Positions 4,831 to 23,892 of a DNA stretch of 24,255 nt are shown here, in pieces. The DNA is taken from NCBI GenBank assembly GCA_963977445.1, contig CAXBPH010000087.1:1-24255 (forward strand), read 5' to 3'. A model generated the notes under the pieces. The model was not told the DNA's origin and ran no database searches. It saw only the letters and a list, made by a program, of their open reading frames with translations. Source of the DNA: an uncultured bacterium. GTDB taxonomy: Bacteria > Hydrogenedentota > Hydrogenedentia > Hydrogenedentales > JAEUWI01. Both the position numbers and the translations under genes were made by a program. Position 1 is the first letter of the stretch; each line of letters begins with the position of its first letter.

Positions 4831-5294
4831 AGCGCCTTTTCACCATAGCGATTCTGCTGCTCGCTGTGGGCAGTGCCGCCTATGTCTTACGCGATGTGGT
4901 GGGGGGAAAGACGTCCACGGCGGATGCGGCGAATGCCCTGCCTCGTGGAGACAGCGCCCAGCTCATCGTCTACTACTTTGACATGGGAAAAGATTGCAGC
5001 ACCTGTCTCAATCTGGAATCCTACACCCACCAGACGCTCACGACTTATTTCAACGATGCCCTCCAATCGGGCGCGATCGAATGGGCTGTGGTTGATGTAG
5101 ATACGCCCGAAACCAGCCACTTTGTGGAGGACTTTGGACTCTACACCAAGTCGGTTGTTCTGGCCCGATTCGATGGGGAGACGATGACCGGCTACAACAA
5201 TCTGAGTCGCATCTGGGAATTGGTCTACGACAAAGATGCCTTCATGGAATACGTCCGTCTCCAAGTGGAAGAAGCCCGTGGAGCGACTTCGTGA
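4827..5294 (+). CDS. Membrane-anchored periplasmic thioredoxin-like protein (ArsF-like family)
   Basis: N-terminal hydrophobic anchor, LIVYYF..CSTC..LE motif, VDVDTPE..HFVEDFGLYTKSVVL and RIWELV. ATGA overlap with the upstream gene and GTGA overlap with the downstream gene. Confidence 0.75.
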   Translation: MKRLFTIAILLLAVGSAAYVLRDVVGGKTSTADAANALPRGDSAQLIVYYFDMGKDCSTCLNLESYTHQTLTTYFNDALQSGAIEWAVVDVDTPETSHFVEDFGLYTKSVVLARFDGETMTGYNNLSRIWELVYDKDAFMEYVRLQVEEARGATS

Positions 5295-9488: not shown

Positions 9489-10727
9489 TTATTTTGCCGC
9501 GATGTCGTAGGCGAAGAGATACTCGCCACGTCGAATATAGAGGCGTCCATCGGCGATGGTGGGGTGGGCCCAGTGTTTGGCTGAGCCTTCTTCGATGGCA
9601 AATTGCCCGGTGCGCTCGAAACCATCGGGGGTGGCCTTGACCAGGCTTACGATACCCTTTTGGGGACCTTCGTAGGCATAGAGCATACCATCGGCATAGA
9701 CGAGGGCACTTTCACTGATTTCTGACGTGCGCCACACGATTTTTCCGGTCTTGAACTCCAGGCACATCATTTCACGGCCGGAGCGGTGGGTTGTGCCGTA
9801 GATGTAGCCCTCTTTCAAGACCACCCCACCGTGGAAGGTGTCCATTTCGGTGTCTTGCCATACTGGCGTGATTTCCGACCCATCGTCCGAGAGTTGGAGG
9901 GTGCCGCCCCCTTCTTTGCTGCCGGCCACATAGTAGATCATGCCGTCGCTATATAATGGGGTGCTGGCGTGAATGTCGTATTTGTCGGGGTGCTCATAGG
10001 TCCACAGGACCTTGCCCGTATCCGGGTCGGCGCCGACGACATACTTGGCCGACATGGTTACCAGAATACGTCGTCCCTTGTGCACGATGATGTTGGGTGA
10101 GCAATAGGCCGAGGCGTCGCTGAATCCCTTCGACGCCCAGACGGTTGCGCCATCCTTTTTGTCGAGGGCGACCAAGGAGGCATCGGGGCCACCGGGCATG
10201 GCATAAACGTATTTGTCATCTACCAGGGGAGACTCTGCGATAGCCCACTGAATCTGGGTCCCCTTGAAGCGGGCCAGGGTATCCACCTCCCAGAGCGTTT
10301 TTTGGGTCGTCAGGTCGAAGCAATAGACCACACCGAGTCCGGAAATCAGGTAGCCACGGTCGCCTTCGATTGTCAGGGTCGAACGGGCTCCGGGGGCCAT
10401 CTTGTCGGTGGTTTCTTTGCCGTAATTCAAACGCCACTGCTCTTCGCCGGCCTTATTGAGGGCAAAGAGGTACCCGTCGTCTTCATTCAACAGTCCGGGG
10501 ACATAGAGGGTGTCTCCAGCCACCGAGACGGAGGCGTAGCCCATGCCTATGGAATCGATTTGCCATGCCAGCGCTGGGCCACCTTCCGGCCAGGACTTCA
10601 AGAGACCAGTTTCTGTGAATTGGCCATCTCGGTCGGGTCCTCGAAATTGCAGGGCATCACTGGCATGTACCAAGGTAGACGCTGCAAGGATCAGGTAACA
10701 CGCACTCCGAAAAGTCCACCGACGCAT
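9489..10727 (-). CDS. Secreted PQQ-binding-like (BamB-like) beta-propeller protein
   Basis: AGGAG SD, signal peptide, QFRGPDRDG, LLKSWPEGGP, repeated GxxxW blades, WAHPTIADGRLYIR. Confidence 0.9.
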   Translation of the reverse strand: MRRWTFRSACYLILAASTLVHASDALQFRGPDRDGQFTETGLLKSWPEGGPALAWQIDSIGMGYASVSVAGDTLYVPGLLNEDDGYLFALNKAGEEQWRLNYGKETTDKMAPGARSTLTIEGDRGYLISGLGVVYCFDLTTQKTLWEVDTLARFKGTQIQWAIAESPLVDDKYVYAMPGGPDASLVALDKKDGATVWASKGFSDASAYCSPNIIVHKGRRILVTMSAKYVVGADPDTGKVLWTYEHPDKYDIHASTPLYSDGMIYYVAGSKEGGGTLQLSDDGSEITPVWQDTEMDTFHGGVVLKEGYIYGTTHRSGREMMCLEFKTGKIVWRTSEISESALVYADGMLYAYEGPQKGIVSLVKATPDGFERTGQFAIEEGSAKHWAHPTIADGRLYIRRGEYLFAYDIAAK

Positions 10728-10754
10728 GAGAATTCTCCTGGGTTGTATTAATTT

Positions 10755-11756
10755 CTAGAACAACGAGCTGAACAGCGCCCAAACGCGGGTTACCGGGAAG
10801 GTGCTGGGAAACTTGTTGAACGATACATGACCATCCATATAGAGGACGTTGGCACCACCGGGAATATGATTGAATTCCGTGGGCACGGCACTCACGAAGT
10901 CATACATGACGGCCAGTGTGCTTTGGGACTGGGCCGAGGCTGCCGCGTTGTTGATATCGGTGATGTAGAAGCGTTCGATACCTTCGCGCAGCCGAAGAGC
11001 CGGCTCAAGGCCGGCACCGGAAATGTCGGAATCATAGGAGTTGGCACCGTAGGCCACCTCGGTTACCCGCTGGACGAAGGCCGCAACAAAGGCACCGTTG
11101 ATGTAGGTTGGAATGAGGTTGGCCGTGTTGGCTGCCCCATCATTGGGGTCGGCACCGGCCGCCAGGTAATTGTCCCCATCGATATCATTGAAGCCCCAGC
11201 CCAGGTAGACATAGGATTCGGGGCTGAAGGCGCAGGGGTCCCACTGGGCTTCGCCGGTGTTCGTCAGGACGGTCTGGTTATACCAATTGCCTGATTCTGT
11301 GTTGGTGGAATCGGTGCTATCCGGGTCCGAGGGGCAAATCAGGACGTTGGGGTCGGTGAGATATTCGGGGTAGACTTCCATTCCGTTAAAAACGAATTCC
11401 ACCGCGCCGGAGCCCCCCGTGCTGGGTGTGGGCTCGAAGGGATTCGCGTAGGCGCAAACGCCATTCACGGGCTCGGCATAGTTGCTGTAGTCATGGGGGA
11501 GGTTGGGGTCGAGGGGGTTGAGGTCCCGAACTTCATAAGAGACGCGGTCGGCCATGGCAGGAAACTTTTCACCAGCGGACTCGTTGGCGTACATTTTGAG
11601 CACCACGCCCAGTTGCTTCAGATTGTTGGCGCAACTTGAGCGGCGTGCGGCCTCCCGTGCCCGGGCCAGTGCCGGCAGGAGAATGGCCGCGAGAATGCCA
11701 ATAATCGCGATTACGACCAGCAATTCGATGAGGGTGAAGCCACGTTTTCGATTCAT
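10755..11756 (-). CDS. DUF1559-type prepilin-like protein (type IV pilin N-methylation signal and H-X9-DG-like C-terminal motif)
   Basis: [54 protein letters not shown], and C-terminal [17 protein letters not shown] (H-x10-DG here). Confidence 0.92.
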
Positions 11757-11824
11757 AGGTAATTCCTTTTAACTGCAGTTAACGTGGGCAACCCTCCAGG
11801 CAAGCGAGTCCTGTAGCGCGTTGG

Positions 11825-13339
11825 CTAAAGCTTAATCCATGTGGTCGTGTGGCACCCTTCGATATCTTCTTTATTGCGGAAAGAAATGGCCGCCGTCGGG
11901 CAGGCCCGGACGCACTCGTCGGCCGATTTCCGGAGCCCTTCATCGAGGCTGCGCCCGAAGGGCACTTTAATATCCATATCAAAGCCACGCCCACTGAAGG
12001 CGAGGCCGATATCTTCGCCATACTTCTCTGCGATCTCTACGCACAGGCCACAGCGGATACACTTGCCGGGTTCCAGATAAACGTCGCCGCCCAGGCCGAC
12101 AAAGGAGACCTTCTTTTCTTCGGTGGTGTTGTACTTGCGCTGTTCCGCGCCATATTCGTGGGACCATTTTCGCAGGGTACAGGAGACCCGTTTACGGCAA
12201 TCGCAATGAAGGCAGCGGCCCGCTTCCGCACGGGAATCGGATAGGGGTACTTCGTCTTCGATGGCGGCTACCGGCATGGCCTCGAGATTTTCATTGTGAT
12301 CCCGCATGTCCTCCATTTCCGCCTTCACCATTTTGCCGATTTTGGATTCGAAGAGCTTTTTTTCCGGTTTCGGGTCGACACTGGTCATGTAGCGATCCAC
12401 CCAGGCTGCCGTCGTCTTGCCATTGCCCACGGCCATGACCGTCAGCTTGTGTTCCTTTGCAGCAAAGACTTTGCCGCCCGGCTTCGGCATGCCGTCGCAG
12501 GCGAGAACGATACCGTCAAAGTCCCCTTTCAGGGCCTCCAACATTTCTTCGTCGACTTTCTGGCTGTACCGGTATTCCACGCCCAGCTTGGCGATAAATT
12601 CGATTTCCGTGTCGAGCACGTGCTTCGGCAATTTGCTGTCGGGCAGATCGCGAAGCTTTCCGCCGGCCTTTTCATCTTTTTCGTAGAGCGTTACGGCGTG
12701 GCCTCGTTTCCGAAGCACCCATGCCGCGGCCATACCCGTGGCACCCGCACCTACGATGGCCACCTTCTTACCAGAGTCCGGCGGGCATTCGAGTAGCTCC
12801 GGGTTCTCCTGAAGGGACTTCTCCGCCACGTTACGGTGCAACATGCGGATTTTCATGGTCTCGTCGTAGCTCTTCCGTCGGCAGGGGTTCTCGCAGGGTG
12901 CGGGGCAAACATAGCCGAGGGTCCAGGGGATGACCAATCCATTGTGGATGGTGAAGGCGGCATCGTCGAATTTGCCTTCGTAGATTTCACGCATCATGAC
13001 GGGGATATTCATCGAAGCGGGACAGGTGTGGGCGCAGGGGGCTTCGCAATCGCCGATGTGCTCACTGAGAATGAGTTCCAGCACTTCCTTGCGGGCCACG
13101 CACACGTCGCCCGTGTCCGTCTCGATTTTCATGCCTTCCTGGGCGAGGGTGCTGCAGGACGAGTGAATCTGACCCGTGTCCACATTGCGCACCGAGCAGA
13201 GCATGCAGGAGTTCATGGGGCGCACGCCTTCCCAATAGCACAACGTGGGAATCTCGATATCCATCTTACGGGCGGCCTGAAGGATGGTGGTCCCTTCGTC
13301 GACTTCGATATCCCGATTGTTGATACTCAGTGTAGGCAT
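11825..13339 (-). CDS. Multi-Fe-S subunit: NuoG/HydA-type N-terminal [2Fe-2S], GltD/NfnL-type Fe-S and partial FAD domain, C-terminal NuoG-like [4Fe-4S]; NAD(P)H-binding and catalytic domains absent
   Basis: IPTLCYW..SCMLC..SSC ([2Fe-2S]); HIGDCEAPCAHTCPA and LGYVCPAPCENPCRR (GltD Fe-S domain); KVAIVGAGATG (Rossmann); EAGRCLHCDC..C; KCIRCGLC and ECVRACPTAAI. AGGAG SD. Confidence 0.85.
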   Translation of the reverse strand: MPTLSINNRDIEVDEGTTILQAARKMDIEIPTLCYWEGVRPMNSCMLCSVRNVDTGQIHSSCSTLAQEGMKIETDTGDVCVARKEVLELILSEHIGDCEAPCAHTCPASMNIPVMMREIYEGKFDDAAFTIHNGLVIPWTLGYVCPAPCENPCRRKSYDETMKIRMLHRNVAEKSLQENPELLECPPDSGKKVAIVGAGATGMAAAWVLRKRGHAVTLYEKDEKAGGKLRDLPDSKLPKHVLDTEIEFIAKLGVEYRYSQKVDEEMLEALKGDFDGIVLACDGMPKPGGKVFAAKEHKLTVMAVGNGKTTAAWVDRYMTSVDPKPEKKLFESKIGKMVKAEMEDMRDHNENLEAMPVAAIEDEVPLSDSRAEAGRCLHCDCRKRVSCTLRKWSHEYGAEQRKYNTTEEKKVSFVGLGGDVYLEPGKCIRCGLCVEIAEKYGEDIGLAFSGRGFDMDIKVPFGRSLDEGLRKSADECVRACPTAAISFRNKEDIEGCHTTTWIKL

Positions 13340-13351
13340 GAGAAACTCCTG

Positions 13352-15799
13352 TTAGACCCGCGAGCCCGCTTTGATGGCGTCCACCGGACAAGCCACCAGG
13401 CAATAGTCGCAGCGCGTACAGATATCCAAATCAATGTGATGCATTTTGAAGGGGCCGCCGTCGATACAATCCACGGGGCACACCTGGGCACATTTGGTGC
13501 AGCCGATGCAGTTGTCTTCTACCCAGTAATCGATGAGGGGCTTACATTTTCCTGCGGGACAACGTCCCTCTACGTGGGCTTCGAATTCTTCCCGGAAATA
13601 CATGAGTGCGGTGAGCACCGGGTTGGGGGCGGTCTTGCCGAGTCCACAAAGACTCTGGCTCTTAACCACCTTGCCCAGCTCTTCCATCAGTTCCAGGTCG
13701 GAGGATTTGCCCTGACCTTCGCAGAGGCGGGTGAGCATTTCCTTCAGGCGCATGGTTCCGATGCGGCAGGGCGAACACTTGCCGCAGGACTCATCCTGGG
13801 TGAAGGAAAGGAAGTAGCGGGCCATTTCCACGATACAGTCGGAGTCATCGAGCACGACCATGCCACCGGAACCCATCATGGCACCGATTTTAGACAGGGC
13901 CTCAAAGTCGACGGGCGTGTCGGCCATGGACTCCGGAATAACGCCGCCGGAGGGTCCGCCGACGAGCATGGCCTTGAACTTGCGGCCATTGGCGATGCCG
14001 CCGCCGATTTCTTCGACAATCTGGCGTATTGTGATGCCCATGGGCACCTCGATAAGGCCACCATTGCGAATCTTTCCGGCGAGGGAGAACACTTTGGTGC
14101 CCTTACTCTTTTCCGTACCAAGTTTTGCGAATTCTTCGGCCCCTTTGCGAACGATCCAGGGGATCACCGCGAGGGTTTCGGTATTGTTAATCAGGGTCGG
14201 GCACTCATAGAGGCCGGAGATTGCGGGGTAGGGGGGGCGCATGGTGGGCATGCCCCGTTTTCCTTCGAGGGAGGCAATGAGGGCGGTTTCTTCACCACAC
14301 ACAAAGGCCCCGGCACCTTCTTTTACACGAAGGTGGAGGTTGAGGCCCGAACCCAGGAAGTTGTCCCCGAGAATACCCACTTCCATGCAATCGTCGATGG
14401 CGCGGCGCATTTGTTTTGTCGCCAACGGGTACTCGGCACGGATATAGAGGATGCCTTCGTCCGAACCCACGGCGAGGGCGCTGATAATCATGCCCTCGAT
14501 AACGCGGTAGGCGTAGGATTCAAGGATCATGCGATCCATGAAGGCACCTGGATCGCCTTCGTCACCATTGCAGATGATGTATTTCTTATTCTTCGGATTG
14601 GGCGCGTCGTGGACAAATTGCCACTTTTTGCCCGTGGGGAAGCCTGCGCCACCACGGCCGCGAAGACCACTGTTGTTGATTTCGTCAATGATTCGCTGGG
14701 GAGACCAGGCCTCGTCACTGGAGGGCAGATCATGGAGGGAGGTTCCGGCGTGCCGGGCCATCATAATCGCACCGGTGATTTTACCGAAGAGACATCGCTC
14801 GACGGCGGCGAATCCGCCTTTTTTCAGATACTCGCCCAGGTCGTGGGGGTCGATTTCACCGTGGTATTCCGTGGCAATATGCATTTGATTGCCCAGGAAG
14901 GCCGTTACGTGTTCGTCCCGCACATTGCCATCGTGGCGGGATACGGTATGGTTGTGGGCGTGGGCATCGACATAAAGATTATCGGCCCAGCGCAGCGCGG
15001 TAGAGCGCAGCCGGGATATGGGGGACTGGGGCTTGAAATGGCGCGCGATGATATCGGGGATATCGTCGGTCGTCACCCGCAGGTACATGGTGGGTTCTTT
15101 GTTTTCTTCGATAATTTCGAGGACAGGCACCTGGTGGCACATGTGCACACAACTCACGTGCTTTACCGGGACCGTGGATTGAATGCCCGCGAGGGCCAAT
15201 TCTACGGCCGCGTCGATGCGGTCGGTACCCCCGGCAACACAGCAGGAGTCGAGGCCAATACGAATTTCGGTACCATTTTCGATGACTTCGCGCTTCACGG
15301 GGGCGACATGGGTCGCCTTATCTTTTTCCCGCTGCTCAAAGTCACGCATGGTAGCGCCAACGGCTTCCGGGCCTACGTTGGCATAGGTCACGCCATCGAC
15401 CTGCATGGCCGGCGCCAGGGAACAGCAGCCGATGCAGGCTACTTTCTGGATCGTGTACTTGCCCTCATCGTCTGTGTCGCATCCTTTTTTGAGATTCAGA
15501 TGATCGGACAGGGCTTCATGAACGCCCTCCGCACCTTTCACGTGGCAGGCCGTGCCATCGCAGAGACTGATGACATGATTGCCCACCGGGTCGCGACGGA
15601 ACTGGGAGTAGAAGGTGGCTACACCTTCGATGGTTGCCGGTGTGATATCGGTCAGTTCGCAGACCCGCTCCAGGGCTTCGCTCGGCAGATACCGATACTC
15701 GGTCTGAATCGCCTGCAAGATGGGTATGACCGCTTCCGGGCTACGTCCTTGTTTTTCGACGATAGCATCAATTTGTATCAGGTCCAGGGTATCGGGCAT
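13352..15799 (-). CDS. Fused NuoE-NuoF (HydC-HydB / BfuC-BfuB-like) NADH-binding FMN/Fe-S flavoprotein with a C-terminal 2x[4Fe-4S] ferredoxin domain
   Basis: NuoE part: CDGTACHVKG and ACIGCCSLAP. Second [2Fe-2S]-like domain: GLDSCC and SCVHMC. NuoF part: SGLRGRGGAGFPTG, CNGDEGDPGAFMDR, GAGAFVCGEETAL, GGPSGG, ESCGKCSPCRIG, SLCGLG. Then HVEGRCPAGKC and two CxxCxxCxxxCP motifs. ATG 15799 overlaps the upstream TGA (TGATG). Confidence 0.93.
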   Translation of the reverse strand: MPDTLDLIQIDAIVEKQGRSPEAVIPILQAIQTEYRYLPSEALERVCELTDITPATIEGVATFYSQFRRDPVGNHVISLCDGTACHVKGAEGVHEALSDHLNLKKGCDTDDEGKYTIQKVACIGCCSLAPAMQVDGVTYANVGPEAVGATMRDFEQREKDKATHVAPVKREVIENGTEIRIGLDSCCVAGGTDRIDAAVELALAGIQSTVPVKHVSCVHMCHQVPVLEIIEENKEPTMYLRVTTDDIPDIIARHFKPQSPISRLRSTALRWADNLYVDAHAHNHTVSRHDGNVRDEHVTAFLGNQMHIATEYHGEIDPHDLGEYLKKGGFAAVERCLFGKITGAIMMARHAGTSLHDLPSSDEAWSPQRIIDEINNSGLRGRGGAGFPTGKKWQFVHDAPNPKNKKYIICNGDEGDPGAFMDRMILESYAYRVIEGMIISALAVGSDEGILYIRAEYPLATKQMRRAIDDCMEVGILGDNFLGSGLNLHLRVKEGAGAFVCGEETALIASLEGKRGMPTMRPPYPAISGLYECPTLINNTETLAVIPWIVRKGAEEFAKLGTEKSKGTKVFSLAGKIRNGGLIEVPMGITIRQIVEEIGGGIANGRKFKAMLVGGPSGGVIPESMADTPVDFEALSKIGAMMGSGGMVVLDDSDCIVEMARYFLSFTQDESCGKCSPCRIGTMRLKEMLTRLCEGQGKSSDLELMEELGKVVKSQSLCGLGKTAPNPVLTALMYFREEFEAHVEGRCPAGKCKPLIDYWVEDNCIGCTKCAQVCPVDCIDGGPFKMHHIDLDICTRCDYCLVACPVDAIKAGSRV

Positions 15800-17577
15800 C
15801 ACGAAGCCTCAATGCAGTAGAGTTGCGTTTCGGTTCGAACGTAAATACGGCCGTCCATAAAGGCGGGCGTAGCGTAGGTGGGTTCACCCAGGGGCAGGGC
15901 GGCGAGTGGTTCGTAGGTATCACTCGCCTTAAGTATGTGCATGGTGCCTCCCATATCGGCCACGTAGATGTATTCACCCACGAGAACGGGAGAAGAATAG
16001 AATCCTTCATCCATTTCTTCGGCCCAGTGTTCTTCACCGGTTTCCGCATCGAGACAGACGACGTCGCCTATGGCGGTTCCCAAATAGAAGCGCTCGCCAT
16101 CCCCGACGGGGCTGGAGACTTCGGGAAGGAGTTCATCAAACTGCCAGGCGATTTTGGTTTCTATGGCTTCGGCGGTACCGCCCAGGGTGATGCCCGTGGC
16201 TACCGCATATTCATTGGCGACAAAGACCATACCATTACTGTAGGCCGGGGAAGGGGCTACCTCGCCACCCAGGCATTCCACGGACCACAGGAGTTTGCCG
16301 GTCGTGGGGTCATAGGCGTCGACGTTCTCTTCCGATGCCAGGATAAGTTGGTCACCCAGGGTGGTCCGGGCGAGGATGGGGGATGCCCAGGATATCTTGT
16401 CCCGTGGCGTTGCCCAGACTTCTTTCCCCGTGGCCGTGTCGAAAGCGAGGATGCGCGCGTTTTCCGCCTGGTCGAACTGCACATAGAGCAGATTGTCAAA
16501 AGCGAGGAGGGAGGAAGAGTGGCCGTAGTGATTTTCCGGAAGGCCCAGATTGAAGCCCCAGAGCTCTTTGCCCTCTTTGTCGAGGCCCACCAGATCGCCG
16601 TTGGCAAACACGGCAAAGACGCGGTCGCCGTGGGCTACCATGGTGCAGGCAGCAAATCCGGTATCTTCCATGACGTCGGAAACTTCAGTCGGGGTGCCTG
16701 GATAAGGACTCAGGGTCTTGGTCCAGAGCAATTCACCGGAGTCTACATTGAAACAGTATACTTCGCGTTTTTCCTCATCGGCACCGGCCAGATAGAGGTG
16801 GTCACCCCAGACGACGGGCGAATTGTTGCCCGGCATAGGTGCCTCCACTTTCCAGAGGATATTGGTGCCCGCTTCCACATCCCAGGTGGTGGGTGCCGTC
16901 GTGAAATGGGCAATACCGTTGGCGCCGGGGCCGCGAAAGCTTGGCCAATTCACCTCGAGCTCGTCCCACATGGGGCCGGGCACCACAACGACTTCGGCGA
17001 CTTCCGTCACTTCGTCGGTGGCTTCTCCGGTGGTCTCGGTGCTCTTGGTGGAAGCCAGCACGGCTTCCTGTGTTTCCGCGAGCAGCGCGCTTTCTGCGAA
17101 GTATGAGGTCATCATTCCTCCGGCCAAGAGTCCAACACCGGCCCAGGTGATGAGCTGACGTGACTGGGCATAGGCCAGAAACTCTATATCCGCCGTGGGT
17201 TCATCGTCGAGCGTCGGCAATTGGGGGCGCCAGCGCATCATATTCTTGAAGGCTATCAGGAAGACCACGACCGCGCCCAGCAGGGTATAGGCACCAACGC
17301 GGAGTTGGGTCTGGCTTGTGAAGAAGGCCTTACGGGTCATCAGGTCCAGATCCCGAATGCGTTGGGCCAACACCTCATCTTTGGCTGGCAGCGACGCATA
17401 TTCCTGACGCATCGCAGTCAACAGTTCATGATTAACCGGATCCAGGTGTTGTATCTGGAGATAGTTAATGAGCAATAAGAGGAACACGAGGACCGAAAAA
17501 AGGCCCGCGACAATAGTGATCGTGGTAGAGAGACGCCATAAGAAGTCGCTCCTGTCAAACTCCCGTTTTTCTAACAT
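15799..17577 (-). CDS. Membrane protein with about 3 N-terminal TM helices fused to an acidic PQQ-like beta-propeller
   Basis: Hydrophobic segments near residues 20-40, 95-112 and 142-160, a Thr/Glu linker, then NWPSFRGP, repeated DxxTGxxxW blades and YATPAFMDGRIYVRT. Confidence 0.87.
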   Translation of the reverse strand: MLEKREFDRSDFLWRLSTTITIVAGLFSVLVFLLLLINYLQIQHLDPVNHELLTAMRQEYASLPAKDEVLAQRIRDLDLMTRKAFFTSQTQLRVGAYTLLGAVVVFLIAFKNMMRWRPQLPTLDDEPTADIEFLAYAQSRQLITWAGVGLLAGGMMTSYFAESALLAETQEAVLASTKSTETTGEATDEVTEVAEVVVVPGPMWDELEVNWPSFRGPGANGIAHFTTAPTTWDVEAGTNILWKVEAPMPGNNSPVVWGDHLYLAGADEEKREVYCFNVDSGELLWTKTLSPYPGTPTEVSDVMEDTGFAACTMVAHGDRVFAVFANGDLVGLDKEGKELWGFNLGLPENHYGHSSSLLAFDNLLYVQFDQAENARILAFDTATGKEVWATPRDKISWASPILARTTLGDQLILASEENVDAYDPTTGKLLWSVECLGGEVAPSPAYSNGMVFVANEYAVATGITLGGTAEAIETKIAWQFDELLPEVSSPVGDGERFYLGTAIGDVVCLDAETGEEHWAEEMDEGFYSSPVLVGEYIYVADMGGTMHILKASDTYEPLAALPLGEPTYATPAFMDGRIYVRTETQLYCIEAS

Positions 17578-17586
17578 TCTTGAGTA

Positions 17587-18849
17587 CTACGCTCCTTCTT
17601 CAACGGGGCAATAGGGATAACAACGCCCGCAACTGAAGCAGGTCTCTTTGTGGGGTTCAAATATGGTTCGTTTTTTCACGACCGACAATTCGATTAGTTT
17701 AATGCTCATGATCAGGGCCATGAAAGCTCCCAGCAGTGCGCTGCCTGTCTTGAACTTTTCCTTGATGGCCAGCGATTCCGCGTGAAGCTCTGCCGCTGTC
17801 TTTCCTTCGACACGAAACGTGTCGGCTTCAAGACTAACATCGGACACCAGGCTGCGGTCTTCCTTGGCGATGCGTTCGCTCAGGCTCACCGTGGGGTGCA
17901 TATGGGACAAGGGCTCATAGAGCATGTATCCACCGAGGGCACCAAGAGCGATGAAGAGGGGGGTGAGGAAGACATAGCGCCGCACCCGTTTTCTACCCTC
18001 GGCCGGGTCGCCGACCAGATGCTGGGGCGTGGGCATGTCGATGGCGTTGTAGGGGCAGGAATCTTCGCAAAGGCGACAGGACACACAGGGGGAGGGGGGG
18101 ATTTCCAGATGGTGCTTGGAGAAGCGAGACATCCACCCCAGTAATACGCCATAGGGACAGAGGAAACGGCAATAGGGCCGGGCGATAAAGACGCCGATGA
18201 GCAGGATCAGGGCGGCCGCAATGAGCATGGAATAATTGTCGGCCATGCGATAGATGCGCACGAAGGGATCGTAGCGACAGATGAAGAAACCCGACCCGGT
18301 GGCAACGCCGAGCGTCGCAAGGCCGAGATAGAGGTATTTCCCAAGGCCCAACACGCGCTCCAGGGCCGGAGAGATGCGAATTGGTGCAATGGCCACCAGT
18401 TCCTGCATGGCACCCAGGGGGCAAACCGAAGCGCAGAAGACCCGGCCAAAAAACAGGGAAAAGAGGAGGGGTATCACGAAAAAGGAAACCACGATCCAGG
18501 AAACGCCCACATTGGGCAAAAACATGGCCGCCATTACGTTCTGGGTAGAGCCAACGGGGCAAATACAGCCCTGTCGGTAAAACCCGAAGAACAGCAGGGA
18601 AAATACGCTGATGCCAAAGAGTCCCCGGCGCGACCGGGCCTTGAAAACCATCCAGGTAGTCGCGGAAAGGGCCAGGAAGAGGATCAGGGCCTCCCACGGC
18701 GTGTTCCGGCCCGCCGGCTGTGGCGTAAAGAGATAGGGCATCCCGTAGTCGGTCTCGAAGTCGGGTGGAGCGAACTTGAGTTCGATGGCCACCGCCGACT
18801 GCAAGAGCAACGTGGTGAGGCCTGCTATGGCAACGTGCAGATATTTCAT
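17587..18849 (-). CDS. Integral membrane 4Fe-4S-binding protein (NapH/MauN/YccM-like polyferredoxin)
   Basis: Many TM helices. GCICPVG, GRVFCASVCPLG and RPYCRFLCPYG (Cx3CP motifs), plus CVSCRLCEDSCP and C-terminal CFSCGRCYPYCP. Confidence 0.88.
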   Translation of the reverse strand: MKYLHVAIAGLTTLLLQSAVAIELKFAPPDFETDYGMPYLFTPQPAGRNTPWEALILFLALSATTWMVFKARSRRGLFGISVFSLLFFGFYRQGCICPVGSTQNVMAAMFLPNVGVSWIVVSFFVIPLLFSLFFGRVFCASVCPLGAMQELVAIAPIRISPALERVLGLGKYLYLGLATLGVATGSGFFICRYDPFVRIYRMADNYSMLIAAALILLIGVFIARPYCRFLCPYGVLLGWMSRFSKHHLEIPPSPCVSCRLCEDSCPYNAIDMPTPQHLVGDPAEGRKRVRRYVFLTPLFIALGALGGYMLYEPLSHMHPTVSLSERIAKEDRSLVSDVSLEADTFRVEGKTAAELHAESLAIKEKFKTGSALLGAFMALIMSIKLIELSVVKKRTIFEPHKETCFSCGRCYPYCPVEEGA

Positions 18850-18851
18850 GA

Positions 18852-19418
18852 TTACGCCGGTGGGTGGGCGAGATAGGTATCGCCCGTCAAGTAGGTGTAG
18901 GGACTGGATTCAGGTACTTCACTGAAGCAATCCGACGGACAGGACTTGGCAATGGAGCATTCATTGCAGTTGATACAGATATCCTGGCGAATTTGAAGGT
19001 AGAAGGAGCCGTTGCCGAAAACGAGGCAGGCCTTTACGCACTTGGCGCAGCCAATGCACAAGTCTTCGTGGATTTTGTATTCGTAGTAGGGCGCTTCGAT
19101 GTATTTACGTTCAATAGCGGCGGTAGGACAGAGCTGGTTTTCCGCGCCCGTATCCAAATCGCGGGAGCCTGGTTGGAGGTAACCAAAACACAGGTCACAA
19201 TAGCCACAAATATCAAACTGATTGAGGCACTTTACCGCACTGGGGTTGAGAACACAGTGGGTGGTACACCGACCACACTGGGTACATTTTGCGGGATCGA
19301 GCTGCCAGTATTTGGCTTCCGCTTTTTGTCCGACGGCCATCCAGGTGGCACCGGTGAAGGTAAAAGCGGCCGCACTGCGCATGAAATCACGCCTGTCGAG
19401 TTTTGTTCGCTCGCTCAT
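18852..19418 (-). CDS. Tat-signal polyferredoxin (NapG/MauM-like role), about four [4Fe-4S] clusters
   Basis: LDRRDFMR twin-arginine motif followed by a hydrophobic stretch and AEA. 18 Cys, including CTQCGRCTTHC, CGYCDLC, LCPTAAI, CIGCAKCVKAC and CINCNEC..CP. Confidence 0.87.
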   Translation of the reverse strand: MSERTKLDRRDFMRSAAAFTFTGATWMAVGQKAEAKYWQLDPAKCTQCGRCTTHCVLNPSAVKCLNQFDICGYCDLCFGYLQPGSRDLDTGAENQLCPTAAIERKYIEAPYYEYKIHEDLCIGCAKCVKACLVFGNGSFYLQIRQDICINCNECSIAKSCPSDCFSEVPESSPYTYLTGDTYLAHPPA

Positions 19419-19614
19419 CGGGCTCTAGTCCTTTCTCCGGCAGGCTGCACGAATGATTCGCCCAGCACGAGGCACAGGGGGTTGTCGTTTCGAAACACTC
19501 TTCGGGGGTTTTGCTCCCGTGCATTGCGGCCACGGCGACGCCGCCCATGCCGAGCATGGCACCACGTCGAAACAGGCGCTCGAAAAACTCCTGTCTATTC
19601 ATTGACGACTTCAT
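19387..19614 (-). CDS. Small Cys4 membrane-anchored protein (75 aa) with a degenerate Tat-like leader
   Basis: ATG 19614 follows AAGGTG. MKSSMNRQEFFERLFRRGAMLGMGGVAVAAM, then C-x6-C-x2-C-x5-C. It fills the gap between two operon genes and overlaps the next gene by 32 bp. Confidence 0.7.
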   Translation of the reverse strand: MKSSMNRQEFFERLFRRGAMLGMGGVAVAAMHGSKTPEECFETTTPCASCWANHSCSLPEKGLEPDERANKTRQA

Positions 19615-19686
19615 AAGACACACCTTATGTTACGGTCATGCGCTCCCCATTCGGAGCGCTATTCGGGGTTGCCACACCCCGATACA

Positions 19687-20703
19687 CTATTCTGCTGCTT
19701 TTTTACTAGCGAGGGTGGTGCGGGTCTGTTCAAAAATCCGCACCGCTTTCATTCGGGGGTCGAGTACCAGGATTCGATCGGAGGAGTCGACGACCAAGTC
19801 ACCAATTTGTTGGGGGACGTGAAAGGCTTTCGAACCAACTACCAGTTCCTCGAAACTACCGGATGTTATCTCAAATATCTTAATGCGGACCGGCCCCTTT
19901 TCGCCCGTGACGAGCCTGCCCTTGCTGTTAAACGCTATCTGCATGGGGTTACAGCATCCGGAGAAGCTGTCAAGCCGGGTGACATCGGGGCGGTACCAGG
20001 TGGTGACAATATCGCCATTTTCGCGGTAGCGCTCGAGACCGAGTTTGCCGGGATTGACCACCCAAAGCTGGCCGTCATTGTCAAAGGCTATATCGAAGTG
20101 GGCGCTGGGTGCTTCCAGGCCGGGGATATCCCGTTCCTCATCCGCTTTTCCTATTTGATCCAAGACATTGCCGTCGTAATCTAAGCGAAGCACGAGGCGA
20201 CTTCCCCCGTCTGCCAGGTAAACGTTGTCTTCGCTTGCCGCCATTGCGGAAATGTGGGTGCGATCAGAAAGGTTGCTCCACGTCGCGAGTGGTGTTCTGT
20301 CTGGGCCGAGGACCAGAACTTTGTCCCCCAAGCCGACCAGGAGCTTGTTGTCCGGCGTAAGTTCGAGACAGGTCGGCGTTCCGTCGATAGCGATGCGCGA
20401 CGTTTCCTTCCCGTCGGCATTGTATATGGCAATCGTGTTTTCGCCCGAGATATAGAGATTGCCGTTCGCATCTGTTTCCAGCGCTTTTGCCTGGTCAAAA
20501 TCCGGCACGATCTGCCCGGTTTCCTCGAATGCGGTCTCTACATTATCGATATCAAGCAGTCCCGTAATGTCATATTCCAGATTGGGGCCGGGCTCGGGAA
20601 ACTTCTTTTCCTTGGAAACGAGGCTAAAGTAAAAGCCCACCACACACGCCACTGCCACACCGACCAGGTAGGGGTGCTTGGTTTTGCGTACGGGTTCTTT
20701 CAT
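19687..20703 (-). CDS. Membrane-anchored NHL-repeat-like beta-propeller with an FSGCCNP motif
   Basis: Single N-terminal TM. Blades such as ALETDANGNLYISG, NVYLADGG, DIAFDNDGQLWVVNPG, IAFNSKGRLVTGE and LVVDSSDRILVLDP. GAAGGA SD. Confidence 0.8.
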   Translation of the reverse strand: MKEPVRKTKHPYLVGVAVACVVGFYFSLVSKEKKFPEPGPNLEYDITGLLDIDNVETAFEETGQIVPDFDQAKALETDANGNLYISGENTIAIYNADGKETSRIAIDGTPTCLELTPDNKLLVGLGDKVLVLGPDRTPLATWSNLSDRTHISAMAASEDNVYLADGGSRLVLRLDYDGNVLDQIGKADEERDIPGLEAPSAHFDIAFDNDGQLWVVNPGKLGLERYRENGDIVTTWYRPDVTRLDSFSGCCNPMQIAFNSKGRLVTGEKGPVRIKIFEITSGSFEELVVGSKAFHVPQQIGDLVVDSSDRILVLDPRMKAVRIFEQTRTTLASKKAAE

Positions 20704-20724
20704 GGTGGTACTTCCTTCTTCTGA

Positions 20725-22191
20725 CTATACGCCGACGTTGACACAAACCAGATTGTTCATGTCGCGCAGCAATACGCGGTCACCCGCAATGGCAATGGGA
20801 CCCCAAGCGTCGTGTCCATGTAGAACCTGCGCTTCGCCCAATTGTTTGTATTCTTTCGTGGCACCATCGATCATGGTGAACTTGCCATCGTCGTCCAGTA
20901 TATAGAACTTGTCGTCTGCCAGCAAAAAAGGCCCCAAACCGAATCGGTTGTCGTTGCCACTGGACCAGACGAGATTGCCTTCGGTGTCGTAGCAGACGAA
21001 TTGGCCCTTCATGGCACCTGCGTCTTTGGGCATGATGCTGTAGAGCAATCCGTCATGAAAGATGGGCGTCTGCTGTTCGCAGGCCAGGCCGTCTTCGGGG
21101 CCGGTACGGTACAGGATTTCCGCGTCGTAGGTGCCCGAGCCATTTTCCTTCAATTGAAGCATCATGGCACCCGTGCTGTAGCCCGCCGTCACGAAAACCT
21201 TATCGTCACCAGCGGCGACGGGGGAGGGGGCCACCACTTTGGCTTCCCAGGAGACGTCCCACAATATTTTGCCGACATCGGGCCCATCTGCTGCCACACC
21301 GGCGACCCCGCCAATGGCGCTGTAAACATACATGTTTCGGCCCATCAGGGTCATGGGGATAACGGAAGAGTGCGCCATGTTCCACTCCCGGGGGTTGGGG
21401 CTGGTCCAGGCTACTTCGCCGCTTTCGCAGTCAATACCCATCATCAACACATCGGTACCGGCGGGCGCAATGATGACCTGGCCATCCACGATAGGCGGGC
21501 ACTGGCCGGCGTACCACAAGGGTTCTTTGGTGCCATAATCCCGCTGGAGGTCTATGCCCCAACGGAAATCGCCGGTTTCCGTATCCAGACAAACCACGTG
21601 ACACTTCGGCCCCATGGTTACGATGTATTTTTCCGATATGGCGGGTATGGTTCGGGACATACCGTGGTTTCGCTTAATTTTGATCTCGTAGGAGCGGCGC
21701 CAGACCTCTTTGCCGTCTGCCAGCGACAGGCAGCGCAGGGAATCGGCCCGCCCATCCACATCGTAATCCATCAGGTAGGCGCAGCCATTAAAAATCGCGG
21801 GAGCGGCATAGCCATCGCCAATGGGAATCTGCCACATAATCTCGGGGCCGTCGGTACCCCAGGAATCGGCCAGTGCGGGACCATCGAGGACGATATTGTC
21901 TGAGTTGGCACCGCGGAACTGGGTCCAGGAGCCGGGCAGGTCGGAGGGAACGCCGTCGGAGGCGAGAAAGACGCCGGAAAGTTCTGGTCCGGCGCTTTTA
22001 AGGCCGGTGTCTTTTGGAAAGCCGTCTGTACCAGGGGTTTGGGACTCAATGACCATCGCTGGCCCACTGAGGAGCCAATAAGCCATGGCACACAGAGCAA
22101 CGATACTCCAGAGTGCCCCTGCAGATGTCATGGCTATGAAATTGGCCCTGGGGTTTTTATCCAGCGCATTAATGTTGATTTGCATGTTCAT
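20725..22191 (-). CDS. Membrane-anchored PQQ-binding-like beta-propeller, first gene of the Fe-S operon
   Basis: N-terminal TM, WTQFRGANSD, CLSLADGKEVW, CLDTETGDFRW, AWGPIAIAG. The exact start codon is uncertain. Confidence 0.85.
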   Translation of the reverse strand: MNMQININALDKNPRANFIAMTSAGALWSIVALCAMAYWLLSGPAMVIESQTPGTDGFPKDTGLKSAGPELSGVFLASDGVPSDLPGSWTQFRGANSDNIVLDGPALADSWGTDGPEIMWQIPIGDGYAAPAIFNGCAYLMDYDVDGRADSLRCLSLADGKEVWRRSYEIKIKRNHGMSRTIPAISEKYIVTMGPKCHVVCLDTETGDFRWGIDLQRDYGTKEPLWYAGQCPPIVDGQVIIAPAGTDVLMMGIDCESGEVAWTSPNPREWNMAHSSVIPMTLMGRNMYVYSAIGGVAGVAADGPDVGKILWDVSWEAKVVAPSPVAAGDDKVFVTAGYSTGAMMLQLKENGSGTYDAEILYRTGPEDGLACEQQTPIFHDGLLYSIMPKDAGAMKGQFVCYDTEGNLVWSSGNDNRFGLGPFLLADDKFYILDDDGKFTMIDGATKEYKQLGEAQVLHGHDAWGPIAIAGDRVLLRDMNNLVCVNVGV

Positions 22192-23058
22192 AGGCGAAAA
22201 AAAAATCCCTTGCGCTATTAAATTCCCGGCAGGCCCCGAATCGTGTCACGGTCACCCTGGTTTTCGAAATCTGCGGAGAACGCCACTAGATAAAACAATA
22301 GTAGTAACTATTCCATTCCCAATCAATCTTTCGGGCGGCCCAATGGCAACCCGCCCGGCGTTGGGAAAATGGAAGGCGACTTACGGTCCGCGTTCGGGTA
22401 GGGCAACGCGCGGCAAAAACCTTTGCCAGGAGTTGGGCCGGGCACCACTTTCCGAGGCACCGCCTATCCGTATAATTTCGGCGGGCAGGTCTGGTTGGAG
22501 GGGGCTTCAGGAGCGTCCCGAAGTCCGAATGCAGGTTTTTGACACGTTTTGATTGGTTGACAGTGATGCTAATTATGATTCTGGGTGCGAAAATTTACAC
22601 ATGCGGCAAAAAAATACGCACATTGAATTAATTGAATTTAGTGTCGTATATACAAGAAATTTCCACTATTAAGATTCGGATTCATTGATTGTGTTGGTCG
22701 GGTACAGCCAAATTTTTGTCACCGCTGACAAACTGGCGAATTAATGTTGTAAATATATATTTTAGAATGACTTGCGGTGTTTTGTTTTGCGTGGTAGTAT
22801 TCCGACAAGCGTCCCAAGAACGGGCTGAATCAAGGATACCTATGGTTACATCGAGCCTCTTTCGGGTGAGGTTGACTATCTTGCCTCGAACCATTCGCTT
22901 TAGCCCAGTGATTGCGTGATTTTCACCAGTACAGCGTCAACAGGGATAGAAACCTTGTTGCAAGACTATAAATAGAACGCAGGGAACATTGAGTCCAGTG
23001 TGCGAAATAGTGGTCAATGAAATACCCGGCGTTCTGAATCCATGAAAGGGGTTTGAAA
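22192..23058. promoter_or_regulatory. Long, partly AT-rich divergent intergenic region expected to hold the promoters of the Fe-S/propeller operon and the PEP-CTERM gene
   Basis: About 870 bp between divergent starts, visibly AT-rich at about 22530-22800, with no convincing ORF. No individual promoter elements were resolved. Confidence 0.55.
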
Positions 23059-23892
23059 ATGCGAAGAACAGGAGTTTGGCTGGCCGCGCTAGCCATGACC
23101 ACTATTGCGGGAACGGCATCGGCCACCATTACGACGGACGGGCAGTGGAACGATTGGTTCAGTTACGGTGGTTCCTATAACAATTACTGGGATCAGGCCG
23201 AGGCAGCACGGACCCGTACGCCGGGTCTTGATATCCGTTACCAAGACGATCCCGAAAATGATGCCTCGGGTGGTCAGAACTACGATATCGAACAGATCTT
23301 CTACTACTACGAAGATTACAATGACGAAGAGTTGACCGGTGGAATCCTCCATATCGGCCTGGTCACGGGCTATGAGGCATCTAACCGCACCTACCGATCT
23401 GGCGATATGTTCGTCGACCTTGGTGCCGACGATTCCTATGATATCGCTATTGCCACCGGAACCGAGAGTAATTCCCGCTTTGGTGATACCTGGGAAAACG
23501 ACGGCTGGAGAACCGAGCACGTTGACATTCGTTCTCACCGTGACGGCGGCGATCCCTACCGAGTTAAAGATTACCGGAGCGGTGCCACCGATTATACCCA
23601 TGCCGAAGTCGACTGGGATTATGGCGTTGGCCGGGGCAGTAAGCACAATTTCCTGGAGATTGCGCTGGAATTGACCGGTGCCCATGAGTTGCAAATCGCT
23701 ACGAGCGGTATTGGTCTCCACTGGACCATGGAATGTGGCAACGATTTCATTGACGTTTCTGACAGTAATCCTTTGTCCACCATTCCGACGCCCCCGGGGC
23801 CTAACGCTCCCGTGCCTGAACCGGCTACGGTTGCGCTCCTGGGTATGGGTGTATTGGGACTGGCCTTCCGTGGGCGTCGTCCCGCCTGCTGA
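23059..23892 (+). CDS. PEP-CTERM (exosortase target) surface protein, about 277 aa
   Basis: GAAAGGGG SD before ATG 23059, signal peptide, acidic beta-rich body with HWTMECGND, Pro-rich linker, and C-terminal VPEP-ATVALLGMGVLGLAF-RGRR. Confidence 0.9.
   Translation: MRRTGVWLAALAMTTIAGTASATITTDGQWNDWFSYGGSYNNYWDQAEAARTRTPGLDIRYQDDPENDASGGQNYDIEQIFYYYEDYNDEELTGGILHIGLVTGYEASNRTYRSGDMFVDLGADDSYDIAIATGTESNSRFGDTWENDGWRTEHVDIRSHRDGGDPYRVKDYRSGATDYTHAEVDWDYGVGRGSKHNFLEIALELTGAHELQIATSGIGLHWTMECGNDFIDVSDSNPLSTIPTPPGPNAPVPEPATVALLGMGVLGLAFRGRRPAC

Follow-up and report, generated by a model that had tools for sequence, protein, structure and literature searches.

A candidate extracytoplasmic electron-supply system of Hydrogenedentota combining a Bfu-type flavoprotein, a NapGH-like pair and beta-propellers

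Contig CAXBPH010000087.1 of an uncultured Hydrogenedentales bacterium (lineage JAEUWI01; assembly GCA_963977445.1, the source genome) was analysed from position 1 to 24,255, and this whole stretch of 24,255 nucleotides is referred to here as the window. Its central feature is a run of ten open reading frames (ORFs), G10 to G1, encoding a cytoplasmic flavin/iron-sulphur (Fe-S) module (G4 and G3), a membrane Fe-S protein (G6), an exported polyferredoxin (G7), a small four-cysteine protein (G8), four propeller proteins (G10, G9, G5 and G1) and a pilin-like protein (G2). A preliminary description of this DNA had proposed that the ten genes form a trans-membrane electron conduit. Our data suggest that they make up the redox part (module A) of a wider unit of two modules, the second of which (module B) is built around a family 4 glycosyltransferase (GT4) and a MacB-type ATP-binding cassette (ABC) transporter; the whole is possibly an extracytoplasmic electron-supply system with a new terminal enzyme.

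The operon and its conservation

The ten ORFs, all on the minus strand, span 9489-22191 and were found where the preliminary description had placed them. Its account of co-directional genes separated by anything from an overlap to about 70 bp holds: calculated from the coordinates, the spacings from G10 to G1 are 21, 63, -32, 2, 9, -4, 12, 68 and 27 bp. Pfam and NCBIfam profile searches of the window ORFs, read against curated cut-offs, bore out the domain identities it had given across the ten genes (Table 1), and a simple hydropathy scan with a threshold showed one anchor each in G10 and G9, two membrane segments in G5, six in G6 and zero in G3 and G4. As had also been claimed, Pfam showed neither a hydrogenase nor a molybdopterin enzyme nor a membrane subunit of complex I among the main ORFs of the window.

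Evidence that the arrangement is more than chance comes from its conservation across genomes, a check that the preliminary description had itself proposed. When a strong match to G9 is defined as E ≤ 1e-60, 22 of 41 genomes of the same order carry one, and five more have weak NHL matches only. The order G10-G9-(G8)-G7-G6-G5-G4-G3 is kept in 15 of the 18 regions fetched around these same-order G9 matches; of the other three, L027 runs into a contig end, L028 has a lone G9 paralogue and L022 stops at G5. A wider scan, with the G9 alignment as bait and one genome per species, provided loci from the best 80 of 283 relatives. By record title the carriers are Hydrogenedentota, Bacteroidales/Bacteroidota, Latescibacterota, Kiritimatiellae, Lentisphaerales/Victivallales, Planctomycetota, Aminicenantes, Chlorobiota and Verrucomicrobiota, with some bins labelled Nitrospirales – about ten phyla in all. 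Where at least 8.6 kb is available downstream of G9, the genes G7-G6-G5-G4-G3 follow in order in 43 of 47 loci. The remaining four comprise a locus with only G10-G9 and then unrelated genes (L064), one with G4 and G3 elsewhere (L067, on the contig of L022), and two in which insertions push G3 beyond the locus end (L074 and L110). G10 precedes G9 in 64/67 loci, G7 follows G9 in 70/72, and in the loci read G5 invariably lies between G6 and G4.

In two loci (L110:2211-8423, from a Kiritimatiellae bin, and L075:4534-8452) G10 is immediately preceded by terpenoid-type genes, which encode a radical SAM protein, a polyprenyl synthetase-DUF116 fusion, a prenyltransferase/cyclase-like protein and a DGC-domain protein. 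Found in 2 of 14 flank-scanned loci, they were treated as lineage-specific and rejected as members of the system.

The unit extends beyond position 9489, where the preliminary description had ended it: GT4 and the two propeller genes near the start of the window (1540-2925 and 3018-4358) are part of the same co-inherited system. GT4 is marked by an invariant N-terminal C16-x2-C19 motif and by conserved C165 and E337/E345 (EX7E-type). Its orthologues, with 45-56% identity, occur in 25 of the 80 loci, in several phyla; of 25 loci that leave room for it, 15 have GT4 as the gene next after G3 (ORF overlap allowed), and three more have it elsewhere in the locus. Where GT4 stands apart from the cassette, it is followed by a PQQ_2 propeller, a LolD/MacB/DevA-like ABC ATPase and a duplicated FtsX/MacB-type permease. 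The permease, of ~1,010-1,110 residues across loci, contains PF02687 twice together with PF12704 and matches no curated family (33 versus 622 bits for ADOP); the ATPase scores 261 bits against a LolD cut-off of 307.75, its closest models being LolD, MacB, YbbA and DevA. In the source genome the permease lies on a short contig (C396), whereas in genomes from the Bacteroidales (two), Latescibacterota (one) and Lentisphaerales (one) it is encoded just downstream of the cassette, and it is present in 5/5 genomes probed. In a genus relative (genome G008) a 595-residue ResA-like thiol-disulfide oxidoreductase is encoded just after the permease (L116:7612-9399, minus strand).

The modules are strictly co-inherited. 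A strong G9 match, GT4, G7, full-length fused G4 and the FtsX-type permease are present in exactly the same 22 of the 41 related genomes, and five families (f1, f3, f5, f8 and f11) include both carriers and non-carriers; related genomes are not independent, and we therefore attach no statistic to this co-occurrence. Gene for gene, the fused G4 type goes with G9, G7 and GT4. The preliminary description had allowed that it might instead serve a hydrogenase or formate dehydrogenase encoded elsewhere, and this is not what the source genome, which is 94% complete, shows: G4 is its sole PF01512 match, neither an [FeFe]-hydrogenase nor a NuoD-type subunit was found in it, and its five molybdopterin enzymes are all on contigs other than the operon's.

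Of the two propellers, the one at 1540-2925 is 49-59% identical to the gene that immediately precedes G10 in 20 listed loci, and its orthologue adjoins GT4 in L111 and L112. The one at 3018-4358 recurs in the genus and in one other family of the order: identity is 65-66% in L014, L015, L029 and L030, 47% in L017 (the other family), and 45% in L113 (genome G034), where the gene stands beside GT4.

Table 1. Features of the 24,255-nt window and their positions
Feature	Position	Strand	Description
G10	20725-22191	-	488 aa; N-terminally anchored 8-blade-type PQQ_2 propeller
G9	19687-20703	-	338 aa; signal-anchored six-bladed NHL propeller with F-x-G-C-C-N-P
G8	19387-19623	-	78 aa; Cys4 protein with Tat-like N-region
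G7	18852-19418	-	188 aa; twin-arginine polyferredoxin, NapG/MauM-like architecture
G6	17587-18849	-	420 aa; integral-membrane NapH/NosR-type Fe-S protein (Fer4_5)
G5	15799-17577	-	592 aa; polytopic N-terminal membrane domain and periplasmic PQQ_2 propeller
G4	13352-15802	-	816 aa; fused BfuC-BfuB (NuoE-NuoF) flavoprotein
G3	11825-13339	-	504 aa; truncated NfnA/StnA-type BfuA
G2	10755-11756	-	333 aa; prepilin-type DUF1559 / H-X9-DG pseudopilin-like protein
G1	9489-10727	-	412 aa; secreted PQQ_2 propeller, variable/expandable class
GT4 glycosyltransferase, distinct subfamily	174-1466	-	PF00534 and PF13439; module B member
Anchored/secreted PQQ_2 propeller	1540-2925	-	Orthologue of the extra G10-like gene 5' of G10 elsewhere in Hydrogenedentota
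Secreted PQQ_2 propeller	3018-4358	+	PF13360 E 6e-31
ArsE/MTH895 thioredoxin-like protein	4546-4830	+	NCBIfam 92.9 versus cut-off 62 bits
ArsF-family exported CxxC protein	4827-5294	+	NCBIfam 89 versus cut-off 60 bits
ArsG-family CcdA-like membrane protein	5291-5977	+	NCBIfam 222.5 versus cut-off 200 bits
Lyase-like/heparinase-like protein, 1188 aa	5896-9462	+	F5/8 type C domain and heparinase II/III-like domain
Presumed operon control region	22192-23052		Lower-G+C intergenic stretch 5' of G10
PEP-CTERM protein gene	23053-23892	divergent from operon	Kept solely within genus

Proteins of the redox module

In the cytoplasmic module, G4 contains PF01257 (NuoE) and PF01512 with PF10589 (NuoF), all above cut-offs, plus a C-terminal dicluster ferredoxin, with the B and C subunits fused in a single chain; against nuoF_fam it scores 463 bits. 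Its closest solved chains are the B subunits of bifurcating enzymes – NfnB 9n5u_B (636 bits), 9bov_B and StnB 8oh5_B, with HydB (8a6t_B, 7q4v_B and 7p5h_B) also among them. Alignments to these B subunits extend through the dicluster domain to residue 810-812, whereas non-bifurcating NuoF/FdsB score at most 376 bits and their alignments stop at ~745. In passages of a 2022 survey, the Bfu core is described as having six Fe-S clusters, five in B and one in C, and the extra N-terminal cluster and C-terminal dicluster domain of BfuB as missing from non-bifurcating homologues (PMC9304861). Conserved in 46 sequences of G4 are the ligand set C81/C86/C123/C127 and the further sets C187/C188/C218/C222, C673/C676/C679/C719, H743/C748/C753, C765-C775 and C795-C805. 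These would fit one NuoE cluster and five B-type centres, the cluster-by-cluster assignment being tentative; judged by ligand conservation and alignment extent, G4 has both the NuoF- and NuoE-type subunits and the six clusters of a Bfu core.

G3 is composed of Fer2_4, Fer4_20, a Rossmann domain and a C-terminal Fe-S domain, and all its cluster cysteines are invariant in 29 sequences. Its closest solved chains are 9bov_A (E 8e-77), 8oh5_C and 9n5u_A. Residues 4-282 of G3 align to 9bov_A 6-286 and residues 294-485 to 9bov_A 474-671, so that 9bov_A residues ~287-473, the NADPH-binding Rossmann domain, are without counterpart in G3, as is the ~500-residue pterin-like C-terminus of the NfnA/StnA type. 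The half that binds flavin adenine dinucleotide (FAD) is retained, with GxGxxG at 197-202 and alignment over 4-282 and 294-330. The preliminary description had held that the catalytic third domain of such complexes is missing here: the NADPH-binding half is indeed gone, whereas a remnant of the NfnA-type FAD domain is kept. G3 consequently lacks the NADPH part of the NADP(H)-binding, FAD-containing GltD/NfnB-like domain by which the BfuA of Nfn-Bfu/Stn enzymes is recognised.

In comparison with NfnABC/StnABC (9bov, 9n5u, 8oh5), G4 finds its best matches in NfnB/StnB, its N-terminal half being of NuoE/BfuC type, and G3 matches NfnA/StnA over the [2Fe-2S] region, the GltD-type Fe-S region, the FAD half and the Fe-S region that follows. 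The known enzymes differ in having separate B and C subunits and a BfuA with an NADPH domain and a pterin-like C-terminus; they are soluble transhydrogenases, whereas the genes for G3 and G4 sit among those for membrane and periplasmic proteins. To judge from sequence and alignment, G4 and G3 are a derivative of Nfn/Stn-type Bfu enzymes that has lost the NADPH site. Bfu cores work with NADH and ferredoxin, and BfuA connects them to a third substrate with which electrons are exchanged (passages of PMC9304861); the lack of an NADPH-binding domain in G3 implies that the third partner is not NADPH and is reached in some other way. A second full-length G4 with 63% identity is present in genome G034 (C16:5231-7618), and genome G006 holds second copies of G9 and G7 on another contig (C73); these copies could derive from duplication or from mixed bins.

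G6 is a polytopic membrane protein with a Fer4_5 domain (PF12801, 67.5 bits versus a cut-off of 22). It has 15 cysteines, of which 14 are present in all 64 sequences and C414 in 98%. Eight form two CxxCxxCxxxC ferredoxin motifs (C255/258/261/265 and C404/407/410/414); the seven others, in or beside the membrane helices, are invariant and belong to a CxCP motif, two CX3CP motifs and C191, the CX3CP motifs (C139-x3-C143-P and C227-x3-C231-P) being at least 98% conserved in the same set. G6 thereby has the two CX3CP motifs, polytopic core and two C-terminal [4Fe-4S] motifs of the NapH/NosR/RdhC membrane module. Its scores are far below the curated ones: 45.2 versus 213.05 bits for NapH/MauN (TIGR02163), 35 versus 234 for the NapH equivalog and 32 versus 1000 for NosR (NF046105), with no family that binds flavin mononucleotide (FMN) among its Pfam matches. 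A predicted model of G6 (predicted local distance difference test, pLDDT, 74) found no match at E ≤ 0.001 in a Foldseek search of the PDB, and a wide VIA-align search gave only helical-hairpin matches (Z ≤ 6.3, residues 277-393). A complex prediction for G3 and G6 scored 0.00 in two runs made without controls and carries no weight either way.

G7 has a signal of the twin-arginine (Tat) type, DRRDFMRSAA, followed by four Cys4-type motifs that match Fer4 families. In 73 sequences R9, R10, F12 and 16 cysteines are at least 90% conserved (the cysteines at least 92%), and 15 of the cysteines are invariant. The protein has the architecture of NapG/MauM without the family score (TIGR00397, 17.6 versus 178.85 bits), and the pair G6/G7 is NapGH-like in architecture rather than a member of the families. 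Like NapGH, NosGH and MauMN, it joins a CX3CP membrane protein with two cytoplasmic [4Fe-4S] motifs to a Tat four-cluster ferredoxin. In contrast to them, G6 carries a CxCP motif and C191 in addition, and two further helices separate its ferredoxin motifs; an NADH/flavin module, and not quinol, is the presumed input, and no gene for nitrate reductase, N2O reductase or methylamine dehydrogenase is present here.

NosZ, the N2O reductase, is a beta-propeller enzyme. According to passages of PMC5928378, NapH and NosR share two CX3CP and two C-terminal [4Fe-4S] motifs, NapH contacts periplasmic NapG and the cytoplasmic Fe-S protein NapF, such pairs serve periplasmic enzymes, and NosR feeds NosZ. 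NosR-NosZ resembles our system in having a membrane core of the NapH type by which a periplasmic enzyme is supplied or activated. The differences are that G6 is without the periplasmic domain by which NosR covalently binds FMN and that the propellers here are of the PQQ_2 and NHL types; of the accessory genes nosD, F, Y and L of that system none is evident among the Pfam calls for the ORFs read, and a His-rich CuZ-type site was not specifically sought.

G8 has no Pfam or NCBIfam match and overlaps the start of G7 by 32 nt. Its pattern is a hydrophobic stretch and then C-x5-7-C-x2-C-x5-6-C-x-LP[EQ]. A G8-like small ORF is found between G9 and G7 in 55/75 loci across phyla, with an N-region that is mostly of RRxF type outside the source lineage; one Hydrogenedentota clade, with a very short gap between G9 and G7, is without it.

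Among the propellers G10 stands out. It carries PF13360 (E 8e-20) and a hydrophobic segment at 18-36, and with more than 100 positions at least 90% conserved in 71 sequences it is the most conserved periplasmic protein of the set; the conserved positions include K173-T181 (KRNHGMSRT), H176, H274, C154, C201, C231, C400 and C483. We regard it as the candidate catalytic or core subunit. The G9 model (pLDDT 87.6; predicted template modelling score, pTM, 0.81) is a six-bladed NHL propeller; the best hits of a fold search were generic NHL domains (E 3e-15), which gave no functional lead. Its vicinal cysteines C250 and C251, within GCCNP, are at least 90% conserved in 81 sequences. Second G9-type copies in which a clear twin-arginine signal replaces the anchor occur at L061:10964-12004 and L069:4167-5231 (the contig of L028), and the Tat signal of these paralogues suggests that the propeller may be exported folded, perhaps with a cofactor or partner. 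Searches of the ESM Atlas with G10 and G9 returned solely clusters labelled 'BamB/PQQ_2' and 'NHL/SGL/DUF5128'.

G5 (PF13360, E 6e-32) has hydrophobic segments at 19-37 and 92-110 above the scan threshold and a third, read from the sequence, at ~143-163 below it; N349-H350-Y351-G352 and a loop at 70-89 are conserved. G1 (PF13360, E 1e-25) has an N-terminus that reads as a signal peptide. A G1-like gene (at least 220 bits) is found in 36/80 loci, and in Bacteroidales loci 3-7 G1-like propellers, of which some have signals of the lipoprotein type, stand in tandem upstream of G10. Dependence of these propellers on pyrroloquinoline quinone (PQQ) was considered and rejected on family scores far below the cut-offs: against the PQQ-dehydrogenase models (TIGR03075 and TIGR03074) the best score of G5 is 52.8 versus 480 bits, with 18.6 for G10 and 33 for G1. 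For the BamB (YfgL) equivalog G10, G5 and G1 score 27-79 versus 285.2 bits. A pqqC profile had no match in the source genome, but the control genomes were without a match either, and the result has no weight. G2 matches PF07963 (N_methyl), PF07596 (DUF1559) and TIGR04294; its homologues (at least 140 bits) are found in 11/80 loci, all Hydrogenedentota-like, and it is a lineage-specific companion.

Flanking genes and genomic setting

Between the two modules of the window lie an Ars trio (4546-5977) and a lyase-like gene. The trio looks like a thiol relay from cytoplasm to periplasm, as judged from its family matches; it or parts of it stand beside the cassette in 8/18 order-level loci and in 6-8/80 of the wider loci, all of them Hydrogenedentota. 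The listed GTG start of the lyase-like gene overlaps the ArsG-like gene by 82 nt, and its real start is for that reason probably further downstream. The gene itself was rejected as a member of the system: only the nearest relative (L013) shares it (1/18 order-level and 0/80 wider loci). The preliminary description had suggested a sugar-type substrate on the strength of this lyase and GT4. The lyase half of that argument falls; the GT4 half is strengthened by strict co-inheritance and by the MacB-type ABC transporter.

On the other side of the operon an intergenic gap of ~860 bp separates it from the PEP-CTERM gene, and G+C falls to 0.478 at 22001-23000 compared with 0.54-0.59 elsewhere in the window. 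Rfam gave zero matches at the gathering score in the whole window and zero at E ≤ 1 in 22150-23100. In promoter and terminator scans sites were no commoner than in shuffled sequence, with none 5' of G10, and no sigma-70-type consensus site was found in 22192-23052. Nothing independent supports a 994-residue open frame on the plus strand (12836-15820), antisense to G4; most likely it is a side effect of the G+C-rich coding sequence on the other strand.

Elsewhere the source genome encodes an Nqr-type complex (the NqrB/D match is split over two contigs) and three heme-copper oxidases of COX1 type. Together with the molybdopterin enzymes these point to a respiring, not purely fermentative, member of the Hydrogenedentales.

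A proposed electron route and its alternatives

A central issue is the chain that these proteins could form. Conserved order, co-occurrence, cofactor ligands, the Bfu-type nature of G4 and G3, topology, the absence of another NuoF or hydrogenase partner and the adjacency of module B lead us to consider it on balance probable that electrons from NADH pass via a heme-free NapH-type membrane protein to Tat-exported Fe-S proteins and on to an anchored propeller assembly, with ferredoxin a possible bifurcation partner. In the cytoplasm G4 (FMN, six Fe-S clusters and a site for NADH) would form a complex with G3 and its [2Fe-2S], [4Fe-4S] and FAD centres. The membrane module would take the place of NADPH as the 'third substrate' of this complex: G3/G4 would dock on G6, and electrons from NADH would pass to its two cytoplasmic [4Fe-4S] clusters; as for other Bfu enzymes, ferredoxin would probably be the second partner. 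From G6 electrons would move to the four-cluster Tat ferredoxin G7, and probably to the Cys4 protein G8, on a path ending at a membrane-anchored assembly of G10, G5 and the NHL protein G9, whose vicinal cysteine pair would be the best candidate for a two-electron site (dithiol/disulfide or soft-metal). Module B most likely makes, positions or removes a glycoconjugate or other envelope substrate of the propellers. We infer physical coupling of the modules, outward flow and bifurcation from the same set of features, from which the roles suggested for G8 and G9 and the kind of substrate also derive. As in the preliminary description, the direction of electron flow, transfer across the membrane and a periplasmic reaction are thus put forward conditionally.

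A bolder form of this proposal is that bifurcation at G4 splits the electrons of NADH between ferredoxin and a quinone-independent, heme-free G6 wire; the wire would end at a cofactor-poor propeller reductase (G10/G5/G9 with G8), in which a vicinal dithiol beside an Fe-S centre, as in ferredoxin:thioredoxin reductase, would reduce an envelope glycoconjugate from the GT4-MacB module. We hold this version to be rather unlikely. If true, it would amount to a hitherto undescribed transmembrane electron route and an undescribed energy-conserving outlet for NADH.

The kinds of component are familiar – a Bfu core, a NapGH-like pair, propellers and a type VII ABC transporter – and it is their combination that was not found in print, in full-text searches or in PMC9304861 and PMC11406978, supplements aside. 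The earlier judgement that this is not a characterised system accordingly stands as far as literature searches extend. The main text of PMC9304861 contains none of the words propeller, PQQ and NapH, the supplementary clade tables lying outside that look-up. The closest precedents in that text are the predicted Mbh-Bfu and Nuo-Bfu complexes of Schut et al. (2022), in which a Bfu core likewise sits inside a membrane-protein operon and is proposed to couple NADH and ferredoxin to a membrane process; these use ion-pumping modules of the Mbh or complex I type, in place of which we find a NapH-type Fe-S protein and propellers. Module B resembles the type VII ABC systems MacB, LolCDE and DevCA, at the level of domains and below curated cut-offs, in its LolD/MacB/YbbA/DevA-like ATPase and in a permease that combines a pair of FtsX domains with a periplasmic core domain of the MacB type, and differs in that the permease is a single duplicated protein of ~1,090 residues and that no membrane-fusion or outer-membrane partner is found in the loci read. 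DevBCA exports glycolipids made with a dedicated glycosyltransferase. For a link between such a transporter and a redox module no precedent was found in literature searches.

A number of observations weigh against the proposed route. No recognisable redox cofactor site and no heme motif were found in any propeller, so that a terminal redox reaction is suggested by context alone, and G10, the candidate core, has no sequence match in the PDB at E ≤ 0.01. The membrane core of G6 has no solved relative by sequence or fold, and structure thus lends no support to an Fe-S wire. In the passages of PMC5928378 that bear on them, the CX3CP motifs of NapH-type proteins are assigned no function and the proteins are treated as quinol dehydrogenases, a precedent by which electrons might use the quinone pool rather than cross via G6. 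G8 is missing from 20/75 loci. In one genome (G015) G4-G3, with GT4 and the ABC genes, is on a contig other than that of G10-G5. The need for ferredoxin-coupled bifurcation is not obvious in an organism with the aerobic, hydrogenase-free make-up of this one (three oxidases, Nqr). Finally, strict co-inheritance of the redox genes with GT4 and an exporter of the MacB type suits a role in biosynthesis or maintenance at least as well as one in respiration.

Maintenance or maturation is the alternative that fares best, if still an unlikely one. Here the propellers and the GT4-ABC module would carry out a non-redox task in the envelope, for instance on a glycolipid, a glycan or lipoproteins, and the conduit would keep an extracytoplasmic site (the cysteines of G9, for example) reduced or assembled, as NosR/NosX do for NosZ, or in the manner of DsbD/CcdA. 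Co-inheritance with GT4 and a MacB/LolD-type ABC transporter speaks for it, as does an invariant cysteine pair in a Sec-inserted propeller, which cannot gain an Fe-S cluster outside the cytoplasm; ArsE/F/G thiol-relay and ResA-like genes recur nearby in Hydrogenedentota, and NosR is reported to be needed for NosZ activation besides electron supply (passages of PMC5928378). However, merely to sustain maintenance, a Bfu-type complex of 1,320 residues and about a dozen clusters is a heavy cost; the trio of thiol-relay genes is confined to a lineage rather than universal, and the redox genes are conserved as strictly as the propellers.

Electrons could also flow inward: a low-potential periplasmic substrate would be oxidised at the propellers, and G7 and G6 would pass electrons to G3/G4 for reduction of NAD+ and perhaps ferredoxin, the Bfu chemistry starting from the third substrate in a confurcating or bifurcating mode. 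The cofactor chain has no built-in direction, and Bfu enzymes can work both ways: a number of characterised ones reduce NAD+ and ferredoxin with electrons from their third substrate, be it H2, formate, aldehydes or NADPH (passages of PMC9304861). Yet no hydrogenase, formate dehydrogenase, carbon monoxide dehydrogenase or aldehyde oxidoreductase lies in or near the cassette in the loci read. Moreover, centres of the thiol, quinone or PQQ type are too positive for the reduction of NAD+. We consider this direction of flow quite improbable.

It is likewise doubtful that G6/G7 is, like NapGH or NosGH, a pair coupled to quinol or quinone, in which case G3/G4 would make a non-pumping NADH:quinone oxidoreductase, or the periplasm would draw on quinol, and no Fe-S wire would cross the membrane. 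The Fer4_5 domain and CX3CP motifs that G6 has in common with NapH invite this explanation, the membrane domain of NapH having been proposed as the quinol-oxidising part in Wolinella (passages of PMC5928378) and quinones being among the third substrates that Schut et al. propose for Bfu enzymes (abstract of PMC9304861). Nevertheless, G6 is far below the NapH cut-off, with extra invariant cysteines and extra helices, the genome already has an Nqr-type enzyme, and this explanation does not account for the strict tie to G9, G10, G5 and G8.

That G8 is the substrate of a ribosomal peptide pathway – its N-region a leader, its Cys-rich core modified by the propellers or GT4, the product exported by the ABC transporter and the redox module serving that chemistry – is very improbable, for although the protein is small with a conserved N-region and Cys4 core in 55/75 loci, a glycosyltransferase and ABC exporter are co-inherited, and the ATPase resembles bacteriocin/darobactin exporter ATPases at family level (below cut-offs), G8 is absent from 20/75 loci that keep everything else, no peptidase or known maturase of ribosomally synthesised and modified peptides is conserved in the cassette (Pfam, loci read), the core is conserved rather than variable, and the N-region resembles a Tat signal.

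If electrons do run from NADH through G6 to the propellers, the system bears on how proteins of the NapH/NosR/RdhC type, for which no solved family structure was found, move electrons without heme. It bears too on how Bfu-type bifurcating cores may serve extracytoplasmic chemistry: 18 of 57 Bfu clades were uncharacterised in the 2022 survey (passage of PMC9304861). A further question that it touches is the role of the abundant 'BamB-like/PQQ_2' and NHL propellers in heterotrophs of the Planctomycetota, Bacteroidota and Hydrogenedentota types. The presence of the cassette in metagenome-assembled genomes of Bacteroidales makes genetics realistic if a culturable carrier is found there. Among the other carrier lineages, many live as fermenters in sediments. 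A single-copy, strictly co-inherited system that extends over about ten phyla, oxidase-bearing Hydrogenedentales included, is likely to matter for carbon or redox turnover in sediments and waters.

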